From assembly GCA_001000675.1 (NCBI GenBank), contig LCHW01000002.1:5310-69309 (forward strand): a stretch of 64,000 nucleotides of DNA, read 5' to 3'. Below, one piece after another: positions 2,387 through 44,026 of this stretch. This DNA is from Candidatus Wolfebacteria bacterium GW2011_GWE2_44_13 (GTDB taxonomy: Bacteria > Patescibacteriota > Minisyncoccia > UBA6257 > UBA9933). Every line of letters begins with the position of its first letter. Within the stretch, counting starts at the first letter, position 1. Made by a program: the position numbers and the translations under genes. The notes beneath the pieces are model-generated. The model saw nothing but the letters and a program-made list of their open reading frames with translations. It made no database searches and was not told the DNA's origin.

Positions 2387-3349
2387 ATGGAAACATTGGT
2401 AACAGCCGGGTTGTGGATGATCGGAGCAGGTTCGCTCACATGGTTTATTGCTCAGGGGATTTGTTCCCCGATTGAACCGGATAAATGTCGCATCATAACG
2501 CGACTCGGAAAGGCTACGGGGGCCGTAAGAGGCCCTGGAGTAACCTGGATTCCCCTTAAAGGAATGTGGTACGATTTTGTCGTACTACCGAGGATTTTTG
2601 AGATTCCGATTAAGGTAGAATTCGCGTTGCCAGATGAAACATATCCCACGATCGCCGAAGACGTAGTCGCACTCGTACGAGTTGCCGACGATGGCGGAGC
2701 GAAACTGCTTATCAACGGCGGGCAGGAAGGTGTTACGAAAAAGGTTTCACGAATTGCCGCCACCGAGATCGAAGAGTTCGCTGCCGATCCTGGTGAAGAA
2801 CCAAAGAATCTGGATCAAGCGAAGCGGATGAAGCCGACCTTCGTCTACCGGGCAGTAAAAGAACTAGTTGACGATGGGGTGCTAGATGCACTTGATGCAC
2901 TTCCGGACACCGAAAAGGCGAAGGCCTTGAAAAAACTGGAAGCCGACCTGTCAGACGACGGGGAAAGCTTCTCTATGTCGGTCTTCGGACTGGAACTCAT
3001 CGGTTTCAGTATGGGACGGCTCGTTGAGCCTCCCGCGATTACTGAAATCGCCATGAAGAAAAAGGTAGCGACGGAAGAGAACCAAATCAAGCAGGAGCAA
3101 GCCGTTGCACTTAATGAGAGGCTAAAAACTGTTGCTGAAGGAATGCCCGGAGCTTCGCTCTCGGACATTTCCAAGGTCATGTTCACGGCCGATGGAACAG
3201 TGAAGCCGATCGTCCATGAAACGGTTGTGCGTATCGAGCGCCCAGCGACGGCAGACGGAGGTCACCTTATGGATGACATACTCGCCGGCTGGGTTGCGGC
3301 GAATGCATCAAAAACTGGAGGAAAAGATGGCGGAAAAGGAAAAAGCTAA
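2387..3349 (+). CDS. SPFH/band-7 (stomatin/prohibitin-like) domain protein
   Basis: 320 aa, N-terminal TM helix (LVTAGLWMIGAGSLTWFIA) then a segment (TGAVRGPGVTWIPLKGMWYDFVVLPRIFEIPIKVEFALPD...AEDVVALVRV) resembling the SPFH fold, and an E/K/A-rich coiled C-terminus. The region is GC-rich. Confidence 0.45.
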   Translation: METLVTAGLWMIGAGSLTWFIAQGICSPIEPDKCRIITRLGKATGAVRGPGVTWIPLKGMWYDFVVLPRIFEIPIKVEFALPDETYPTIAEDVVALVRVADDGGAKLLINGGQEGVTKKVSRIAATEIEEFAADPGEEPKNLDQAKRMKPTFVYRAVKELVDDGVLDALDALPDTEKAKALKKLEADLSDDGESFSMSVFGLELIGFSMGRLVEPPAITEIAMKKKVATEENQIKQEQAVALNERLKTVAEGMPGASLSDISKVMFTADGTVKPIVHETVVRIERPATADGGHLMDDILAGWVAANASKTGGKDGGKGKS

Positions 3350-3887
3350 GCCGGCGACAGCACCCGGCAAGATGGAAAGTCTCGGCGCATCCCTCTTCAA
3401 ATGGGGGGTCGCCATATTGATCATCGTTGGAGGGTGGAACATGCTCTTCGGCGATGAAGCAAAGCCCGCCGCAGGCGTTGCGGTAACTGAGGCGACGCGG
3501 CAATATGCTGCGGCGCACGACTTTTCAAAGGTGGGGGACGATTTCCACAAAGTGTCCTTCACTGTTCCCGCTGGCGATAAATGGGTGTCGGTTGCATTGC
3601 CTGCAGACTATCACGTGGCATTCACGTGGAATGAAGCGGGAGGGATTGATAAAGGCGATGGGAAAGGCCCTCGCTGGTTCAAGAAAGACGAAAAGGTAAA
3701 GTTGGGTACGCTGGGAACGGCGGTCGACTTAACCTTCCCCGCAGGAGACACCGTGGAGGTACGGTTTTACCGACACGGGAAAACCGCACCTTCGCTCAAA
3801 ACCGCTGACACAGGGAAGAAACCAGCGGCAGCAAAAGAGAAGGAGGAGTTGAGGCCGGTTATCGTCGCCGGCTACGAACAGAAGTAA
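3327..3887 (+). CDS. membrane-anchored beta-rich protein, possible NfeD-like partner of the SPFH protein
   Basis: ATG at 3327 follows a GGAGGA RBS and overlaps the upstream stop by 23 nt, which suggests translational coupling. It has one TM helix (WGVAILIIVGGW) and a beta-rich C-terminal domain. Confidence 0.45.
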   Translation: MAEKEKAKPATAPGKMESLGASLFKWGVAILIIVGGWNMLFGDEAKPAAGVAVTEATRQYAAAHDFSKVGDDFHKVSFTVPAGDKWVSVALPADYHVAFTWNEAGGIDKGDGKGPRWFKKDEKVKLGTLGTAVDLTFPAGDTVEVRFYRHGKTAPSLKTADTGKKPAAAKEKEELRPVIVAGYEQK

Positions 3888-3917
3888 ATAGGGAAGTGGC
3901 AACGCTTCCCACGATAG

Positions 3918-3952
3918 CAAAAGCCCCCGAATATCGGGGGCTTTCTTTTTTA
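3918..3952. terminator. bidirectional terminator AAAAGCCCCCGAtatCGGGGGCTTTCTTTTTT between convergent genes
   Basis: GC hairpin flanked by an A run and a T run. Confidence 0.6.
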
Positions 3953-3971
3953 TTAACTAGAATACAGCTAC

Positions 3972-4316
3972 TTAGAGAGCTCCACCTGCGATTGCCTTTG
4001 CAACCTCGATAAGTCCCTTTGTAAGCGCACCAACGACGACTGCTACGAGAGCATAGGTAAGTGCTCTGCGAGCTTCGGTTACCTTTTTCTCGTCTCCTCC
4101 GCCTGTGAGGAACTTGAATGCGGCAAGCAAGATGTATACTGCTGCAACCGCAAGCAAGATAGCAAACATCCAGTTGCCAACTTTGTTAAGAATGGCAACG
4201 ATTGGTTCGACCCCTGTACCTACTGGTGCTGCTCCCCCAGGAAGGTTTTGAGCAAAACCGATAGCTGGCATAGCAAGTGCCACTGCTGTTACTGATGCTA
4301 GTGATATTTTTTTCAT
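3972..4316 (-). CDS. VirB2/TrbC-like small membrane protein (pilin-like) 1 of 3
   Basis: 114 aa: signal peptide, Gly-rich mature N-terminus, hydrophobic helix, a charged loop (TGGGDEKKVTEARRA), and a second hydrophobic helix. This is the T4SS-pilin architecture. Confidence 0.45.
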   Translation of the reverse strand: MKKISLASVTAVALAMPAIGFAQNLPGGAAPVGTGVEPIVAILNKVGNWMFAILLAVAAVYILLAAFKFLTGGGDEKKVTEARRALTYALVAVVVGALTKGLIEVAKAIAGGAL

Positions 4317-5153: not shown

Positions 5154-5207
5154 ATTCGTATACTACTAGTATAAACTGACAAATTACTCTTGTCGAACGA
5201 AAATCAA

Positions 5208-6497
5208 TCAGTACTGGCTGTTGATTTCGGCAGCGGCCTTATCAAGGGCTGACTGAGATTGGAACTGTCCAGTAAGGACGGACTCTATTGAGCGGGAAAG
5301 AGCGGTGCGATAACTTACATTATCATACTGGAAGGGTGCGCGAGCGGTAAGTGCTTGGCGGGCAAAGACGCTAATGCTTGGATTGCGAAGCGAATCGTTG
5401 ATAAGAGTGCGAAGTGCTGGAGGGTTGTTTGAACGGGTAGCATAAAGAGTTGCAAGCTTAGGGTCGGTCGTTGCGGCAATAACAAAACGCCATGCTTGCG
5501 CAATGTCTACGCTTTTTGCAGAAACGGCTAAGCCCCAATAATCAGCATAGTTAACTGGATTGGATAGATCGTTTTGGGGCATTGGATAAATGCCGAAGTT
5601 AAGGTAAGGGTTTTTTTGCACAAGCTGTTTTATATCACGTGCGTACCCAAAGGTCATTGCGGTATCTTCAGCACCAAAAGCATTGTCGGCATTTGCAAAG
5701 GCATCACTCCATGTATAGTACGGAGTATTAGGAGTAGAAAATTGCGTATAAAAGTCGAGTGCATTTTTTGCGCTTGCATCAAATGTTGCTCGTTGTCCTG
5801 TAACTTCAAGGCGCTGTGCACCAAACTGAAGCATTAGGAGGGAGAGAATGTCAGGTGCGTGTTCGATTGATTTACCTGATCCGCCAATCGCAATCGCAGA
5901 CTTCTTTAGCTGTTTGCTTGCAGTAAACTCAGTAAAGTAAGGAACAAGTGTTTTTACGTCACCCCATGTTGTAGGGGCAACGGCAACACCCTTGTTGTTA
6001 AAAAGGGTTTTGTTATAGAGCAGTGCTGGTGTGTCGATATAGAGCGGAAGGGCAAAGACATAGTCTAAGTAAACAAAATCTCGGGCAACAACATCAGGGA
6101 ATAGTGCTTTTAGCTCGCTTGGTTGAATTTGTGGATAATCAGCGGCCATAATCTTGTCACTATAACGCTGTACCCAACTGCGATGTACCATTAAGATATC
6201 AGGGCCGGTGTTTGTGGCCATTGCATTAAGAATAGTGCGATCATAGCGGTCTTCGGGCACTTGGGTATAACGAAGAACAACATTTGGATGTTCGAGCGTA
6301 TATTGTGATGTGAGTGTGGAAAAATTGCTTGGGTCCTCGATCCCCCAAATAGTAAGGGTGATTTTTGTAGCAGGCTCTTCGGAGTTTCCCTGTTGAAGAG
6401 AAGGAATAAGGTACACAAAGATGCCAATAAATAGGGCGATAGCAAGTGCTACTCCGCCGAGAATCATGATTTGAGTGCGTGTAAATTGCATATGCAT
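5208..6497 (-). CDS. ABC transporter substrate-binding protein, family 1 (sugar/oligosaccharide type), TM-anchored
   Basis: About 430 aa. The N-terminal TM anchor is followed by TLTIWGIEDP...YTQVPEDRYDRTILNAMATNTGPDILMV, typical of SBP_bac_1. The track start at 6509 is GTG; in-frame ATGs lie at 6497 and 6491. Confidence 0.7.
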   Translation of the reverse strand: MHMQFTRTQIMILGGVALAIALFIGIFVYLIPSLQQGNSEEPATKITLTIWGIEDPSNFSTLTSQYTLEHPNVVLRYTQVPEDRYDRTILNAMATNTGPDILMVHRSWVQRYSDKIMAADYPQIQPSELKALFPDVVARDFVYLDYVFALPLYIDTPALLYNKTLFNNKGVAVAPTTWGDVKTLVPYFTEFTASKQLKKSAIAIGGSGKSIEHAPDILSLLMLQFGAQRLEVTGQRATFDASAKNALDFYTQFSTPNTPYYTWSDAFANADNAFGAEDTAMTFGYARDIKQLVQKNPYLNFGIYPMPQNDLSNPVNYADYWGLAVSAKSVDIAQAWRFVIAATTDPKLATLYATRSNNPPALRTLINDSLRNPSISVFARQALTARAPFQYDNVSYRTALSRSIESVLTGQFQSQSALDKAAAEINSQY

Positions 6498-21718: not shown

Positions 21719-21728
21719 ATGTATAAAA

Positions 21729-21745
21729 TGTCGATGTTTTCGACA
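21729..21745. promoter_or_regulatory. candidate TrmB1 operator TGTCGA-N6-CGACA, 10 bp upstream of the trmB1 start codon
   Basis: Inverted repeat embedded in AAATGT...ACATTT. Analogous palindromes with different core bases precede the other trmB genes. Confidence 0.45.
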
Positions 21746-21814
21746 ACATTTATATCATAATGTATCAGTGTTATAAAGTCAATATAGAAATAATATAAAA
21801 TTATGCCGAAACTA

Positions 21815-23810: not shown

Positions 23811-23820
23811 AGGTATAAAA

Positions 23821-23840
23821 TGTTGATATTTATAACAACA
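23821..23840. promoter_or_regulatory. candidate TrmB2 operator TGTTGATA-N4-TAACAACA
   Basis: Imperfect palindrome immediately upstream of the trmB2 start. It shares the TATAAAATGTYGAT context with the trmB1 site. Confidence 0.4.
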
Positions 23841-25235: not shown

Positions 25236-25823
25236 TCAGGATAGCTCGATGCGAAACATCAGAGCGAGTAATATACCGACAAGGATGCATGCACGTATTG
25301 CATAAACAGGTGCAAGCGGGTCTACTCGCCGGTTTCTCCACGACATACAGAGAGCGATAGACGATGTTACGAGGGCAGTCCCCCACAGGACAAAGGACTC
25401 AGAATTCTGCGTAGCGGACCACAAAGACCTGATCATCGGAAAGTATCCTACAATCATAAGCCCTTGTAGAAGTAGGTTTGCCGTAGTGTGACCAGCAAAC
25501 ATCCAAATAACGACGATACCGCCAGCTGAGAAAAGGCAGTATTGGTCGAACGTGCTAAGCTCGAGTCGACTTCCTTGGAGTGTAAGTACGACGATGACAG
25601 CAAGGGTTGCAAGCACATCGGCAATATTTGCCAAGTTATTGGTTGCGTTATGTTTGCCGGCCGAGGCGAAGTACGACACAAGACTCAGGATTGATCCAAT
25701 AAGGAAGATTACCCATGAAGCAAGTCTTGGCTGCACGACGCCAGATAGCACTTGCTGGCAGTAGATAAACATTGTTACTGCGGACAAGGCAGTAAATAGT
25801 ACGACTAACAAAGCGCGCCGCAT
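25236..25823 (-). CDS. polytopic membrane protein, hypothetical (moderately GC-rich)
   Basis: 195 aa with about 6 predicted TM helices. No family assignment. Confidence 0.45.
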   Translation of the reverse strand: MRRALLVVLFTALSAVTMFIYCQQVLSGVVQPRLASWVIFLIGSILSLVSYFASAGKHNATNNLANIADVLATLAVIVVLTLQGSRLELSTFDQYCLFSAGGIVVIWMFAGHTTANLLLQGLMIVGYFPMIRSLWSATQNSESFVLWGTALVTSSIALCMSWRNRRVDPLAPVYAIRACILVGILLALMFRIELS

Positions 25824-25942
25824 GGGGCCTCCTTTTGCGAGAGTAAGATAGTAAGAACTGAATGTAATATGAAATATTTTTTAACAAGTGTCAAATAAAT
25901 TAATAAAAATAAGCCTCGATGCAATCGGGGCTTATTTTTTAT

Positions 25943-26007
25943 TCCCAATGTAACGTCTTGCTTGCCTTGTCGAAGTTTTTAACGAAGACAGGCGATGACG
26001 TTACATT
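25943..26007 (+). repeat. 65-bp repeat copy 2, candidate sRNA or leader element 82 bp upstream of SBP3
   Basis: 63 of 65 positions identical to copy 1. The internal 11-bp inverted repeat is perfect here. Flanked by hairpin-T structures at 25903..25940 and 26018..26052. Confidence 0.7.
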
Positions 26008-26109
26008 CTCTGTATTTCAAGGGCAGTATCCGCACTGCCCTTGTGTTTTTTTGCCAGAACTTTACAATTAAGCTAATTAATTAAGATATTGCAAAACAGT
26101 ATTTATTGT

Positions 26110-28055: not shown

Positions 28056-28058
28056 AAT

Positions 28059-28078
28059 ATGTCTACCATTTTAGACAT
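28059..28078. promoter_or_regulatory. candidate TrmB3 operator ATGTCTA-N6-TAGACAT (perfect 7-bp arms)
   Basis: Lies 4 bp upstream of the trmB3 start codon, in the region divergent from SBP4. Confidence 0.45.
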
Positions 28079-28221
28079 CAAAATTATAGCAAAAATAGTG
28101 CAATATAGTCAATTTTAAAGGCATTTTTGCATAAGTTGACAGAAGTAGTATAACATTGTCTGACACAAGTTTTAAAATGTGGCATTGTGAGGTTAATAAA
28201 TTAATCAATCAATTTGTAACC

Positions 28222-31229: not shown

Positions 31230-32000
31230 ATGATTAAGAATCTTCAGGAGCTGCGAAAGAAAAACGAAGTATCTCAAGAGTATCTGGCAAGCTACCTCGG
31301 TATTTCGCGGCCCACGGTAGAGAAAATAGAAAAAGGCGAGAAGGACATCACCGTTTCGCAAGCAAAAAAACTGGCAAAATTATTCGAGCTCTCTCTGGAC
31401 GAGCTTATTAGTGGAAAAGTGAAAAGAACTATAGAAGTAACAATAGAGAAGGCAGTGGCAGCGGAACAAAAAGAAGCAATGGAAATCAGGATAAGCGTGC
31501 CACAAAAAAAGCTTAAAAAATTTAAGGAGGTATTGTTGTATATTTTGGAGCGGGTGGGAAGTAAGCCAAACGTAGGGATGACAGTAATCTACAAGCTACT
31601 TTACTTTATTGATTTCGATTATTATGAAAAATTCGAAGAGCAGCTTATCGGAGCTACGTATATTAAAAACCATTTTGGGCCAACCCCCGTGGAGTTTAAA
31701 AAAATAGTGGAGGCAATGGAGGAGCGCAAAGAGCTCGAATCTATTAAAAGTAAATACTTTGAGAAGGATCAAAAGAAATATCTCCCTTTGAGAAGGGCCG
31801 ATATCAGTGCGTTCTCGGGAGAAGAAATAAAACACATCGACGATATATTAAATAAGCTTGCCGACAAGTCGGCTAAGGAGCTTAGTGACTACTCGCATAA
31901 GGATGTTCCGTGGATAGCGGCTGAGGATGGAGAGCCAATTGATTACGAGTCAGTATTTTATAGAACTAAAGAAACCTCCGTTCGTGAGTATGAAAATTAA
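31230..32000 (+). CDS. HTH-XRE + Panacea (DUF4065/SocA-like) domain antitoxin
   Basis: N-terminal XRE HTH (LRKKNEVSQEYLASYLGISRPTVEKIEKGEKD) fused to a C-terminal domain (YKLLYFIDFDYYEKFEEQLIGATYIKNHFGPTP) typical of DUF4065. Confidence 0.6.
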   Translation: MIKNLQELRKKNEVSQEYLASYLGISRPTVEKIEKGEKDITVSQAKKLAKLFELSLDELISGKVKRTIEVTIEKAVAAEQKEAMEIRISVPQKKLKKFKEVLLYILERVGSKPNVGMTVIYKLLYFIDFDYYEKFEEQLIGATYIKNHFGPTPVEFKKIVEAMEERKELESIKSKYFEKDQKKYLPLRRADISAFSGEEIKHIDDILNKLADKSAKELSDYSHKDVPWIAAEDGEPIDYESVFYRTKETSVREYEN

Positions 32001-33140: not shown

Positions 33141-33151
33141 AGTTATTTAAA

Positions 33152-33169
33152 TGACGATAAAAACCGTCA
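33152..33169. promoter_or_regulatory. candidate TrmB4 operator TGACG-N8-CGTCA
   Basis: Perfect 5-bp inverted repeat inside AAATGACG...CGTCAAATTT, 12 bp upstream of the trmB4 start. Confidence 0.45.
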
Positions 33170-33252
33170 AATTTATATATTGATTATCAGTTAAGTAAAG
33201 GGTTATTGTCAAGATAACCTAATTCATAAATCAATAAAAAGGTTTAAATGTT

Positions 33253-37363: not shown

Positions 37364-37367
37364 AAAC

Positions 37368-37400
37368 ACTAAAAAATCCGCTTCGGCGGATTTTTTAGTG
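37368..37400. terminator. bidirectional terminator CACTAAAAAATCCGCttcgGCGGATTTTTTAGTG (family member 1 of 4)
   Basis: Extended 14-bp palindrome including the A/T runs, between the convergent SBP6 and Lrp-type regulator. Confidence 0.75.
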
Positions 37401-37409
37401 CGTAGAAGA

Positions 37410-38432
37410 TTAAGAATATGTGCCTCGTGTATACGCTTGTGAAGGCGGTATCAAATCAGGGTACTCCATCGCCATTTGTGTAAATTTATCTACTTGGTAG
37501 ATTTCATTTATTTCAACCTGTTGGAAAATGTCTTTGAATTGATTCTTCATGTCACGGATAAGATTGCGCAAGGCATCTCGGTCTTCTATTTCAATATCTA
37601 GGAGCAATTCCCAGCTCCCCATGCCTTTTACATAGTTGATGATGTTGGGATGTAACGAGCAGAATGCATATAAATCGTCGATGCGCTTCTGATCGAATTG
37701 CATAATTTTAAAACAAACGCGGTAGAGCAGTAGACCTATTTTTTGATAATCAATGGAAAAAGATATTTTAGTAATAACCCCAGCTGCAACGAGCTTTGCG
37801 TAGTGTTTATGTACTAAGCCAACGGAAACCCCCAGAACAGAAGCAATTTTAGTAAATTCCATTCTGCCATCAATAAGGAGGAGGGATATCATCTTGCGAT
37901 CAAGCTCAGTTAACTTGGCTTTTTCAGTCGTTCCTCCTGACAAAGCGTTTTCTCGTGGATGGTTTTCCTCGCCGATTAAATAGGTGCGCGGAAATTGTAT
38001 AAAGCCTAGGCCGACAAAAATATCCGAAGAAGCAACGTACTCACCGTAGCGGGTGAAAAACTTTTGCAGCATTTCGTTGTAGCTAAAAATATCTTTACTG
38101 ATGAAGCAAAGGAAAACATCTGCATATCCGTCTGAGCGCATGACAATCGGAGTATAAGCATCAGCATTAAGATATGCGTATATTTCCTGCTCCTTCTCTT
38201 TTGAAAGGCCGGCAAATTTAAGCCAATAGCCCCAGAAAAATGAATAGTCAGCCTTATCATAGTCAATAAAGGCCCAAAAGTGCTTTATAACACCTCGTTC
38301 CATGAGCTGCTCATAGTGGTATTTAACAACCTGAGGGGACGTGCCGATAGCGCGGGCAATCTCGGAGAAGCTTGCGCGGCCATTTTGGTCAAGCTGAAAA
38401 AGTATCTTTTTGTCAAGTTCTGTGACGTTCAT
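37410..38432 (-). CDS. tandem-duplicated Lrp/AsnC-family regulator (two HTH + RAM-like modules)
   Basis: 340 aa. Two HTH_AsnC-like segments (LDKKILFQLDQNGRASFSEIARAIGTSPQVVKYHYEQL and LDRKMISLLLIDGRMEFTKIASVLGVSVGLVHKHYAKL), each followed by a domain of about 100 aa. Confidence 0.65.
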   Translation of the reverse strand: MNVTELDKKILFQLDQNGRASFSEIARAIGTSPQVVKYHYEQLMERGVIKHFWAFIDYDKADYSFFWGYWLKFAGLSKEKEQEIYAYLNADAYTPIVMRSDGYADVFLCFISKDIFSYNEMLQKFFTRYGEYVASSDIFVGLGFIQFPRTYLIGEENHPRENALSGGTTEKAKLTELDRKMISLLLIDGRMEFTKIASVLGVSVGLVHKHYAKLVAAGVITKISFSIDYQKIGLLLYRVCFKIMQFDQKRIDDLYAFCSLHPNIINYVKGMGSWELLLDIEIEDRDALRNLIRDMKNQFKDIFQQVEINEIYQVDKFTQMAMEYPDLIPPSQAYTRGTYS

Positions 38433-38619
38433 TTTTAAAAAAATATAATAATACTCTAATTTTAGAGTATTATTTAAAAAAATACAAGAAATCTATTGTA
38501 GATATATCATTTAATGTCATAATAATGTCATAAGATGCATAGAAAGGAACTATGTTATCCCAAACCTTGCAAGGGTTAGAAAGAGAGAAGTTTATAAATT
38601 AATTAAAAATAAAATATAT

Positions 38620-39762
38620 ATGGATAAAAATACAAAAATGATCGTCGGTGCTGTTATAGCTATTGTGGTGCTATGGGGAGGATATGCGCTTATGGGGAAG
38701 CAAAGCGTGCCGGCAACGAATGAACCGATAAAAATCGGCGTTGCAACATTCTTGAGTGGAGATCTCGCGGCATTAGGGGAGAACATCGTAAATACTGCAC
38801 AGTTGGCAGTGGACGATATAAATGCAAAGGGAGGTATTAACGGGCGACAGGTGCAAATAATCGCCGAAGATGCAAAGTGCGATAGCAAAACAGGATTGTC
38901 GGCTGTATCTAAGCTGGTAAACACTGACAATGTTAAGTATATCGTTGGCGGTATGTGTAGCAATGGCACTATAGCAGCAGCACCTGTTGCGAATGAACAT
39001 AACGTCGTCCTGATGACACCGGTCACTGGCGGGCGAAATGTAGACGAAGCAGGAGAATACATCTTCAGAACAGCAAACTCAGACCTTTTGGCGGGACGCA
39101 ACATTGCAGAAGCAATGGCAAAAAAAGGATATAAGAAGGTGGGCGTGATTGCTGAAACAACCGAATATACAATCGATATAAAGAAGAGCTTTGAGCAACG
39201 GGCAAATGAATTAGGGCTAACAGTTGCGGTTGCCGAAGAATTCCAGCCAAATACGACGGACTTTAGAACAATTGCAGCAAAGATAAAGGGTGAGAATTTG
39301 GAAGCAGTGTTGGTTGCGTCGCAGACAGGCATTAGTGGAGGCAACTTGATCAAGCAGATGAAGAGCCTTGGTATAAATGCTCCTGTATTCTCAGACTTCC
39401 TCTTGGTGTTGAATGGGGATGTTAAAAAGATTCTCGGCTCGTTTGAAGGAATCTATTTCGCTGATCCTTCTTATAACGCGGACAATGCAGGGCTTAAGAA
39501 CTTCTTCGCAGCATACAAAGCAAAGTACGGAAAAGATCCAGTAGCGCCATTCCACAGCGCAGCAACGTACGATGATGTACAGCTACTCGCTACTGCAATA
39601 AAAGCTGTAGGTGACGACAGTGTGAAAGTACACGATTGGTTAACGGCAAACGTAAAGAGTTACAAAGGATTTATGGGAACCTACTCCATTGACCAGAACG
39701 GAAATTCAGATCTCGGATTTACGGTAAAGGTCGTAAAGGATGGAGTGCCAACAGATATGTAA
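38620..39762 (+). CDS. LivK-type substrate-binding protein 7
   Basis: IKIGVATFLSGDLAALGENIVNTAQLAVDDINAKGGINGRQVQIIAEDAKCD... Confidence 0.85.
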   Translation: MDKNTKMIVGAVIAIVVLWGGYALMGKQSVPATNEPIKIGVATFLSGDLAALGENIVNTAQLAVDDINAKGGINGRQVQIIAEDAKCDSKTGLSAVSKLVNTDNVKYIVGGMCSNGTIAAAPVANEHNVVLMTPVTGGRNVDEAGEYIFRTANSDLLAGRNIAEAMAKKGYKKVGVIAETTEYTIDIKKSFEQRANELGLTVAVAEEFQPNTTDFRTIAAKIKGENLEAVLVASQTGISGGNLIKQMKSLGINAPVFSDFLLVLNGDVKKILGSFEGIYFADPSYNADNAGLKNFFAAYKAKYGKDPVAPFHSAATYDDVQLLATAIKAVGDDSVKVHDWLTANVKSYKGFMGTYSIDQNGNSDLGFTVKVVKDGVPTDM

Positions 39763-39767
39763 ATGAA

Positions 39768-39800
39768 ACTAAAAAATCCGCCTCGGCGGATTTTTTAGTG
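39768..39800. terminator. bidirectional terminator AACTAAAAAATCCGCCtcgGCGGATTTTTTAGTGG (family member 2)
   Basis: Near-identical to the terminators at 37368, 41836 and 43991. Confidence 0.75.
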
Positions 39801-41830: not shown

Positions 41831-41835
41831 TAATC

Positions 41836-41870
41836 CACTAAAAAATCCGCCGAGGCGGATTTTTTAGTGG
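41836..41870. terminator. bidirectional terminator CACTAAAAAATCCGCCgaGGCGGATTTTTTAGTGG (family member 3)
   Basis: Same motif as the other family members. Confidence 0.75.
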
Positions 41871-41878
41871 TGATTAAA

Positions 41879-42613: not shown

Positions 42614-42628
42614 ATATTTGATGTAAAA

Positions 42629-42647
42629 GTGACGATAATTCCGTCAC
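42629..42647. promoter_or_regulatory. candidate TrmB7 operator GTGACG-N7-CGTCAC (perfect 6-bp arms)
   Basis: 16 bp upstream of the trmB7 start codon. Confidence 0.45.
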
Positions 42648-43962: not shown

Positions 43963-43990
43963 CACCGGAGTACATGACAGTTAAATAAGC

Positions 43991-44026
43991 AACTAAAAAA
44001 TCCGCCTCGGTGGATTTTTTAGTGGG
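43991..44026. terminator. terminator AACTAAAAAATCCGCCtcgGTGGATTTTTTAGTGGG (family member 4)
   Basis: Same motif with a G-T wobble in the stem. Confidence 0.7.

Follow-up and report, generated by a model that had tools for sequence, protein, structure and literature searches.

A single-chain, two-module Lrp/AsnC-type protein conserved in Patescibacteria and its divergent partner gene in a Wolfebacteria substrate-binding protein array

The window considered here, a stretch of 64,000 nucleotides from Candidatus Wolfebacteria bacterium GW2011_GWE2_44_13 (contig LCHW01000002.1, positions 5,310 to 69,309), contains an array of nine divergent regulator/substrate-binding protein (SBP) cassettes at 21-44 kb, and the regulator of cassette 7 raises a question of origin. 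Is this protein, which comprises two Lrp/AsnC-type modules in one chain and is termed here double Lrp, a newcomer that took the place of a TrmB regulator, as a sequence-only reading had proposed, or is it the older occupant of the locus? Judged from its sequences, double Lrp is a strongly conserved family of bacteria of the candidate phyla radiation (CPR), within a larger two-module superfamily that extends to DPANN archaea; both groups are ultra-small organisms. The main result is this uncharacterised family, invariably divergent from a partner that varies. The gene and the segments of its product, in which the DNA-binding domain is a winged helix-turn-helix (HTH), map as follows:

37410..38432, minus strand, stop codon included: double-Lrp gene, encoding a 340-residue single-chain Lrp/AsnC-type protein (list of open reading frames, Pfam, 171 homologs, AlphaFold model)
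38283..38432, minus strand: module 1 winged HTH, residues 1-50 (Pfam HTH_24 at residues 5-50, 50.2 bits; model helices at residues 5-16, 22-29 and 33-45; column conservation 0.76)
37983..38282, minus strand: module 1 linking strand and RAM-like β-α-β-β-α-β domain, residues 51-150 (model; PH0140 alignment)
37917..37982, minus strand: inter-module linker, residues 151-172, with S165-G166 invariant (alignment; least conserved region, 0.64)
37767..37916, minus strand: module 2 winged HTH, residues 173-222 (Pfam; model helices at residues 176-187, 193-200 and 204-216; conservation 0.75)
37413..37766, minus strand: module 2 RAM domain and C-terminal tail NEIY-DKFTQMA-EYP, residues 223-340 (FL11/PH1519 alignment, weak PF01037 match, model; tail conservation 0.85)

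The reading frame starts with ATG and runs uninterrupted through its 340 residues with zero internal stops. An origin from two genes, a missed stop codon or a frameshift was rejected, because the frame is continuous and hundreds of orthologs have equal length; full-length orthologs of 326-370 residues are abundant. Pfam identified the AsnC-type winged HTH twice in the whole protein, at residues 5-50 and ~174-223. When the two halves were scanned separately, HTH_24 (PF13412; curated cutoff 21.9 bits) and HTH_AsnC-type (PF13404; cutoff 27 bits) scored above cutoff in both, with 50.2 and 37.0 bits, respectively, for half 1 and 31.3 and 29.5 bits for half 2. The RAM model (PF01037; cutoff 25 bits) was undetected in half 1 and weak in half 2 (15.1 bits, residues 248-295). 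Sequence matches in the PDB extend from the HTH through the RAM domain in both halves, with PH0140 aligned to half 1 (E 5e-7, residues 3-115) and PH1519/FL11 to half 2 (E 9e-10, residues 158-292). The RAM assignment is thus carried by these alignments and by the fold, despite the sub-cutoff Pfam score. The halves are mutually homologous, presenting 31% identity over 88 residues (E 5e-12).

The AlphaFold model, obtained with 34 homologs as input, displays a predicted local distance difference test score (pLDDT) of 89.7 and a predicted template modelling score (pTM) of 0.87. The same order of elements is seen twice, with three HTH helices followed by a strand and a β-α-β-β-α-β unit, and either half can be superposed on Lrp/FFRP regulators of solved structure with a root mean square deviation (rmsd) of 2.2-2.8 Å at 18-26% identity (target-normalised TM score of 0.73-0.80). 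The proposal that the regulator is a double protein of HTH and RAM-like modules is therefore borne out by Pfam in each half, by the PDB matches and by the predicted fold: half 2 displays a Lrp-like fold and both halves belong to one gene, with no frameshift or lost stop. What Pfam confirms half by half is the HTH and not the RAM domain, and the predicted structure, which reproduces the double Lrp fold, addresses the proposed pseudo-dimer through pTM and fold matches. On that basis the two RAM domains most likely pack together in the model as an intramolecular pseudo-dimer.

The structural matches include the fused protein NirDL, over the full length, and duplicated ferredoxin-like α+β barrel proteins, which is what packing of the two RAM domains against each other would predict. 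A siroheme-decarboxylase-like enzyme (AhbA/B, NirDL) instead of a regulator would accord with the two-module length and layout of NirDL (4ch7, 4czc), which is the best full-length structural match (Foldseek E 7e-14, TM 0.58-0.62). The match, however, presents merely 12% identity and an rmsd of 7.8 Å, and each half is closer to the true regulators described above. NCBIfam scores are below cutoff for both AhbB (24.6 bits; cutoff 125) and AhbA (18.3 bits; cutoff 140), and tetrapyrrole genes adjoin the gene in none of the loci examined. The HXYXR catalytic motif, which faces the central cavity of siroheme decarboxylases (PMC4145669), occurs in 0 of 34 family members. On these grounds the enzymatic role was rejected, its likelihood being close to nil.

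Both HTHs and both RAM modules are conserved to the same degree in the family (0.73-0.78), which indicates that both halves are under selection and functional. Each recognition helix is conserved (PQVVKYHYEQL and VGLVHKHYAKL), yet the two differ in sequence, a combination that predicts an asymmetric operator. Two features mark the RAM-like domain of module 1, namely the signature FWAFIDYDKADYSFFWGYWLKF of the family and an R-DGYAD motif (G-x-x-D) that is invariant. Of the RAM-loop G-x-x-D/E motif, module 1 has an invariant copy (GYAD) and module 2 also retains one (GSWE). This motif touches the amino-acid effector in classical Lrp proteins, and its retention in double Lrp thus suggests a small-molecule effector.

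A search of 5.8 billion proteins revealed 171 homologs of 326-370 residues with 54-98% identity, and all the named sources among them are Patescibacteria, including Wolfe-, Moran- and Kaiserbacteria and the Parcubacteria group. The family alignment of 34 sequences displays a mean column identity of 66%, with signatures that classical Lrp lacks, namely FWAFIDYDKADYSFFWGYWLKF, R-DGYAD, the invariant SGG linker and the C-terminal NEIY-DKFTQMA-EYP. Scanning 185,579 species-representative genomes identified 36 double-Lrp loci, essentially one per genome, and family members occur in Wolfe-, Moran-, Kaiser-, Magasanik- and Uhrbacteria at about one copy per genome, with 55-98% identity. Contigs of five loci (L026, L033, L038, L043 and L046) are labelled as metagenome-assembled genomes of “uncultured Bdellovibrionales”, “Gammaproteobacteria” or “Saccharibacteria”, labels that look doubtful given the gene content.

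Beyond this core, the family profile retrieved at least 662 clusters (50% identity level, E<=1e-30) from 1.84 billion cluster representatives; among the 150 representatives listed, nearly all comprise 310-350 residues and present a single match stretch across both modules. Distant members that were sampled share 22-48% identity with the window protein and keep its two-module layout; G102, G272 and R190 are invariant in them, and D105 and R149 almost invariant. Named sources in the distant-member profile search include Woese-, Pace-, Nano- and Micrarchaeota, with a weak tail in Thorarchaeota. Literature searches on Lrp/AsnC in Patescibacteria, tandem or pseudo-dimeric Lrp, Lrp in DPANN or CPR, and TrmB/SBP in CPR retrieved no description of the family, and a 2010 review of archaeal Lrp proteins covers only single modules of ~15 kDa, leaving fused modules unmentioned (PMC2995911). 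The single-chain double Lrp, which had been considered uncommon, is thus so among characterised proteins only; in metagenomic sequence space it is common, as the clusters counted above show.

The nearest upstream open reading frame lies on the opposite strand in 36 of 36 species-representative loci, at a gap of 100-240 bp in nearly all, against a baseline of 30% (44/147) for other plus-strand genes in the same loci. DPANN homologs present the same divergent layout in the three loci inspected (3/3), with unrelated partners. This invariance suggests functional coupling to the neighbour, whatever its identity. The partners themselves are heterogeneous. A single family for all of them was rejected, since the hidden Markov model (HMM) of the receiver-like partners matches just 9 of the 36 loci. 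In these nine the partner is a stand-alone receiver-like protein; elsewhere it is an asparagine synthase of the AsnB type (L035), an NMT1-type binding protein comprising the NMT1 part alone (L033), a DUF3147 membrane protein (L017) or an unrelated small protein. AsnB, or an AsnB-NMT1 fusion, is found one gene beyond the partner in L015, L017 and L027. An amino-acid theme therefore recurs among the neighbours, comprising AsnB in four loci, an SBP remnant and a permease in L036 and the NMT1-type SBP in L033.

The commonest partner (L012, L022, L024, L025, L027, L031, L040 and L042) is a small receiver-like protein with a conserved HH motif and without an output domain; the L024 protein matches PF00072 at 32.6 bits, and these partners constitute an orphan response-regulator-like CPR family. 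The fusions in L015 (20-3112, minus strand) and L027 (1800-4886, minus strand) are proteins of ~1030 residues in Moranbacteria-type genomes, with an AsnB-type asparagine synthase joined to an NMT1/THI5-like domain.

A LivK-type SBP was not found within 6 kb of double Lrp in 34 of the 36 species-representative loci, using HMMs built from the window SBPs. The exceptions are the Wolfebacteria locus L011, with full SBP genes, and L036, with a truncated remnant, and only the Wolfebacteria lineage of the window has a LivK-like SBP as the divergent partner. The remnant in L036, a Magasanikbacteria locus, is an N-terminal SBP fragment (5160-5414, minus strand) that matches SBP7 best (E 2e-11) and lies divergent, ~590 bp upstream of double Lrp; an APC-family amino-acid permease (2715-4124, minus strand) is located 1.9 kb away. 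This fragment may mean that the link between regulator and SBP predates the Wolfebacteria lineage. In 19 of the 36 loci, double Lrp has a TrmB-family gene within 6 kb, on one side or the other and at distances that vary; this count, which has no baseline, may reflect conserved synteny among related genomes or functional association.

The DNA between the double-Lrp gene and its partner in the window comprises the following features:

38433..38619, no strand: regulator/SBP7 intergenic control region, 187 bp (sequence)
38459..38487, minus strand: putative regulator promoter, -35 TTGTAT at 38482-38487, 17-nt spacer, -10 TAAAAT at 38459-38464 (family-wide register)
38496..38523, plus strand: putative SBP-facing promoter, -35 TTGTAG at 38496-38501, extended -10 TGTCATAAT at 38515-38523 (family-wide register)
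38447..38474, no strand: perfect 13+2+13 AT-rich palindrome centred on the regulator -10

Over the ~75 nt closest to the regulator, 21 sequences (the window plus 20 orthologous upstream regions) give a gap-free alignment, across genera and whatever the neighbour. Two blocks are conserved in the family, cTTGATA-N17-TGnTAAAAT on the regulator side and, on the opposite strand, TTGAAA-N18-TGnTATACT/TATAAT on the partner side, and their sequences are consistent with back-to-back promoters. The window blocks match this family register and SBP7 thus occupies the conserved divergent-partner slot. A direct repeat of two TAATGTCATAA units at 38512-38533 encloses the SBP-facing extended -10. The block CAATAGATTTCTTGTATTTTTTTAAAT is 100% identical in L008, a relative at ~80%, in which the 27-nt core of the control region is kept without change.

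The AT-rich palindrome of the window reads AATAATACTCTAA-TT-TTAGAGTATTATT on the plus strand, and its equivalent in the close relatives L006 and L007, AATAATCTATTATTAC-C-GTAATAATAGATTATT, is also perfect. The intergenic regions of the window and of L006/L007 are identical save for two single-nucleotide polymorphisms and one ~30-nt patch, which carries the palindrome. Both palindromes overlie the regulator -10 and the 5′ untranslated region, and L008 has none. An operator function for the palindrome was rejected, because relatives at 98% with identical HTHs carry a different one and L008 lacks it; its replacement may reflect mutation by template switching at a quasi-palindrome, or selection in favour of a hairpin. 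A scan with Rfam returned nothing over the gathering score in this region, with weak matches on the terminators.

The partner gene, the terminators that flank the cassette and a second cassette that bears on the question are located as follows:

38620..39762, plus strand: SBP7, LivJ/LivK-like type I substrate-binding protein of 380 residues, the divergent partner (Peripla_BP_6 E 8e-63)
37366..37401, no strand: bidirectional hairpin terminator at the regulator 3′ end and the preceding SBP6 (terminator scan)
39768..39799, no strand: hairpin terminator past SBP7, common to the next TrmB gene (terminator scan)
25236..25823, minus strand: cassette 3 partner of 195 residues, with no Pfam match and 11-16% identity to the TrmBs

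Among solved structures, SBP7 is closest to binding proteins for branched-chain amino acids, LivJ and LivK among them (E 1e-30 to 1e-28), and the sequence-only reading was right to describe the divergent partner as LivK-like. TrmB is the regulator in seven of the nine divergent cassettes, with double Lrp in cassette 7 and the Pfam-less protein in cassette 3; TrmB is thus the usual occupant, as had been claimed, but not of every other position, since the cassette 3 partner is also non-TrmB. An HMM of the array TrmBs (E<=1e-5) did not pick up the double-Lrp genes of any locus, and the score of double Lrp against the TrmB model PF01978, 23.7 bits against a cutoff of 25.6, corresponds to a generic winged-HTH cross-match. 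A co-directional TrmB and SBP pair is located at 44.2-46.2 kb, and scattered among the cassettes are a livHM permease pair, an ABC ATPase and a SocA/Panacea HTH gene. Identity among the SBP paralogs of the array is 20-34%, with a single pair higher, at 74%.

A replacement of TrmB by a Lrp-type amino-acid sensor in cassette 7, with regulator modules that are interchangeable and each sense the substrate of their own cassette, would fit several of these features. Double Lrp holds the same relative position as the TrmBs of the seven TrmB-SBP cassettes, the tenth pair being co-directional, and cassette 7 agrees with the layout of the array, as its regulator is divergent from a Peripla_BP_6 SBP gene and it has the common terminator type. 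The terminators of cassettes 6-9 are near-identical, and SBP7 resembles LivJ/LivK, whose genes are regulated by Lrp in E. coli. The regulator, however, predates the array and is independent of it, as the 34 loci with no LivK-type SBP sequence found within 6 kb illustrate, and it carries the promoter region conserved throughout its family. Next to the TrmB start, most TrmB cassettes display a palindrome that contains GC, and in several a AACTATTGACA box lies upstream of the SBP gene; in cassette 7 neither a TrmB-type GC-containing palindrome nor an intact AACTATTGACA box was found, the box being represented only by a degenerate GGAACTATGTTATCC. In addition, the SBP paralogs are old, so that no recent swap is visible, and the survey shows the opposite of a double Lrp repeatedly paired with different SBP paralogs across arrays. 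We consider the replacement improbable.

With the regulator resident at about one copy per genome, with its own control region, and the partner variable, it is the SBP gene that fills the divergent slot of the regulator and not a Lrp that fills a TrmB slot. The picture of the array is corrected accordingly: the long-standing occupant is the Lrp-type gene, and it is the binding-protein gene that came in. The proposal that regulator modules are exchangeable among cassettes is not supported by this comparison, and cassette 7, being uninformative on TrmB sensing, lends little to the idea that the regulators of the array sense the transported substrates.

The palindromes within ~30 nt of the TrmB starts, TGTCGA-N5-TCGACA, TGTTG-N10-CAACA, TGTCTA-N6-TAGACA, TGACG-N8-CGTCA and GTGACG-N7-CGTCAC (21719-21760, 23811-23840, 28056-28085, 33141-33170 and 42614-42645), have the appearance of operators specific to each cassette, which would have diverged together with its TrmB paralog. 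Additional GC-rich hairpins are present in the 265-bp intergenic region of cassette 3 (25824-26088). Near-identical bidirectional terminators (ACTAAAAAATCCGCcTCGGCGGATTTTTTAGT) follow SBP6-SBP9 (37366-37401, 39768-39799, 41831-41878 and about 43990-44025, respectively). The SBP6-SBP9 genes themselves share only 20-31% identity, and homogenisation or spread of the terminators is therefore suggested. The position beside the permease and ATPase genes holds a SocA/Panacea antitoxin with HTH in the window (31230-32000, plus strand), DUF3800 in L006 (14192-14851), and AbiEii with two unknown genes in L008 (9192-11379); it looks like an insertion hotspot.

Around the cassette 7 pair, relatives in the lineage of the window differ in their cassettes and in inserts that include DUF3800, AbiEii, a methyltransferase and extra SBPs. 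The pair itself is adjacent in all of them, with SBP7 at 97% and the regulator at 98% in L006/L007, and at 80.5% and 78%, respectively, in L008. This retention, together with the shared 187-bp region, makes a regulatory link from double Lrp to SBP7 plausible. Autoregulation and control of divergent genes are typical of Lrp/AsnC regulators, and in E. coli livJ/livK are under the control of Lrp. The reading that we favour, and hold to be probable without being secure, is that double Lrp is resident at the locus, forms a pseudo-dimer, responds to an effector and, as an Lrp-type regulator, controls both its own gene and the gene in its divergent slot, here SBP7. Architecture, fold, family conservation, invariable divergence and the conserved upstream DNA are observed; DNA binding, target gene, effector and oligomeric state are what we infer from them. 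The two HTH and RAM halves would pack as a pseudo-dimer equivalent to the homodimer of an ordinary 15-kDa Lrp, and the protein would bind the shared 187-bp region through its two non-identical recognition helices, at an operator that would be asymmetric. In this way it may autoregulate and control the divergent SBP gene, with a small effector as the trigger; the RAM domains would bind this effector, which is probably an amino acid.

Several observations weigh against this assignment. A partner that changes with the lineage suits a dedicated local regulator poorly, and the very high conservation of the protein fits a global or architectural role better. The RAM sequences are far from the Pfam model, and effector binding may be altered or lost; the pseudo-dimer is deduced from pTM and fold matches. 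A generic sigma-70 promoter scan performed at chance (6 found versus 6.8 expected), leaving the promoters to cross-species conservation, and the -10 palindrome is probably not the operator of this protein, nor could a candidate operator be defined in the control region.

Double Lrp could, on this evidence, be a housekeeping chromosome organiser or global regulator of CPR bacteria, its adjacency to an SBP gene having no specific regulatory meaning and the array having expanded around a conserved gene. Lrp is a chromosome-organising or global regulator in enterobacteria. Such a role would account for the 54-98% identity across class-level CPR lineages at about one copy per genome, for neighbourhoods that are mostly housekeeping (IF-2, RbfA, DHH, AP endonuclease, UDG and CCA-adding enzyme) and for the lack of conservation of the divergent partner. 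It would also suit an array that is changing, since cassettes and genes of the mobile or defence type have come and gone even among close relatives. It explains less well the invariant divergence with a short shared control region, seen in every species-representative locus, and the stability of the SBP7-regulator pair within a changing array, where the back-to-back promoter blocks are kept. The global role is a serious alternative, although we judge it unlikely, and it is not mutually exclusive with local control of the divergent gene.

To our knowledge, transcription factors are very scarce in CPR bacteria and DPANN archaea, and there is hardly any knowledge of how these organisms control nutrient uptake from hosts. 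In several CPR classes, double Lrp ranks with the better-conserved proteins, and its fused architecture would fix the dimer and allow asymmetric DNA recognition. As a small soluble protein with a defined 187-bp candidate target region and a testable ligand panel, it offers a good experimental entry point. More tentatively, and as a possibility that we find doubtful, two-module Lrp proteins may constitute an uncharacterised single-chain pseudo-dimeric class common to CPR and DPANN, two ultra-small, episymbiotic radiations, and possibly exchanged between these, in which a conserved bidirectional promoter “socket” would repeatedly have taken up lineage-specific genes (receiver proteins, asparagine synthase, SBPs such as SBP7) and the protein would act, through an asymmetric operator, as a master nutrient-state switch for the uptake or signalling gene that each lineage has put there.

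Comparison with known systems places each half of double Lrp with the Lrp/AsnC (FFRP) proteins FL11/PH1519, PH0140, PH0061, Haloferax Lrp, E. coli Lrp and AsnC, with which it shares the winged HTH, the linking strand, the RAM fold and the G-x-x-D/E motif; as in many members, the gene is divergent from its neighbour. Classical Lrp proteins are ~15-kDa monomers that form homodimers and octamers (PMC2995911). Double Lrp departs from the single-module type in having two modules in a 340-residue chain, with unlike recognition helices and RAM domains under the Pfam cutoff, and the classical proteins lack its aromatic-rich signature (FWAFIDYD...FFWGYW) and conserved C-terminal tail. NirDL and AhbA-AhbB (4ch7, 4czc and 4czd) are the only solved units of two Lrp modules, fused in NirDL; the likeness lies in the two-module unit (TM ~0.6), while double Lrp, at 12% identity, displays neither HXYXR nor a heme-pathway context. 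The loci described here, where a Lrp-family gene stands beside a Leu/Ile/Val-type SBP gene and, in some orthologous loci, an asparagine synthase gene, recall the E. coli systems of Lrp acting on livJ and livKHMGF and of AsnC with asnA as a divergent pair. This contrasts with E. coli in two respects: there, Lrp is a single-module global regulator unlinked to liv, whereas here the pair is divergent and lineage-specific, and the synthase paired with AsnC is AsnA, whereas the orthologous double-Lrp loci carry the AsnB type.

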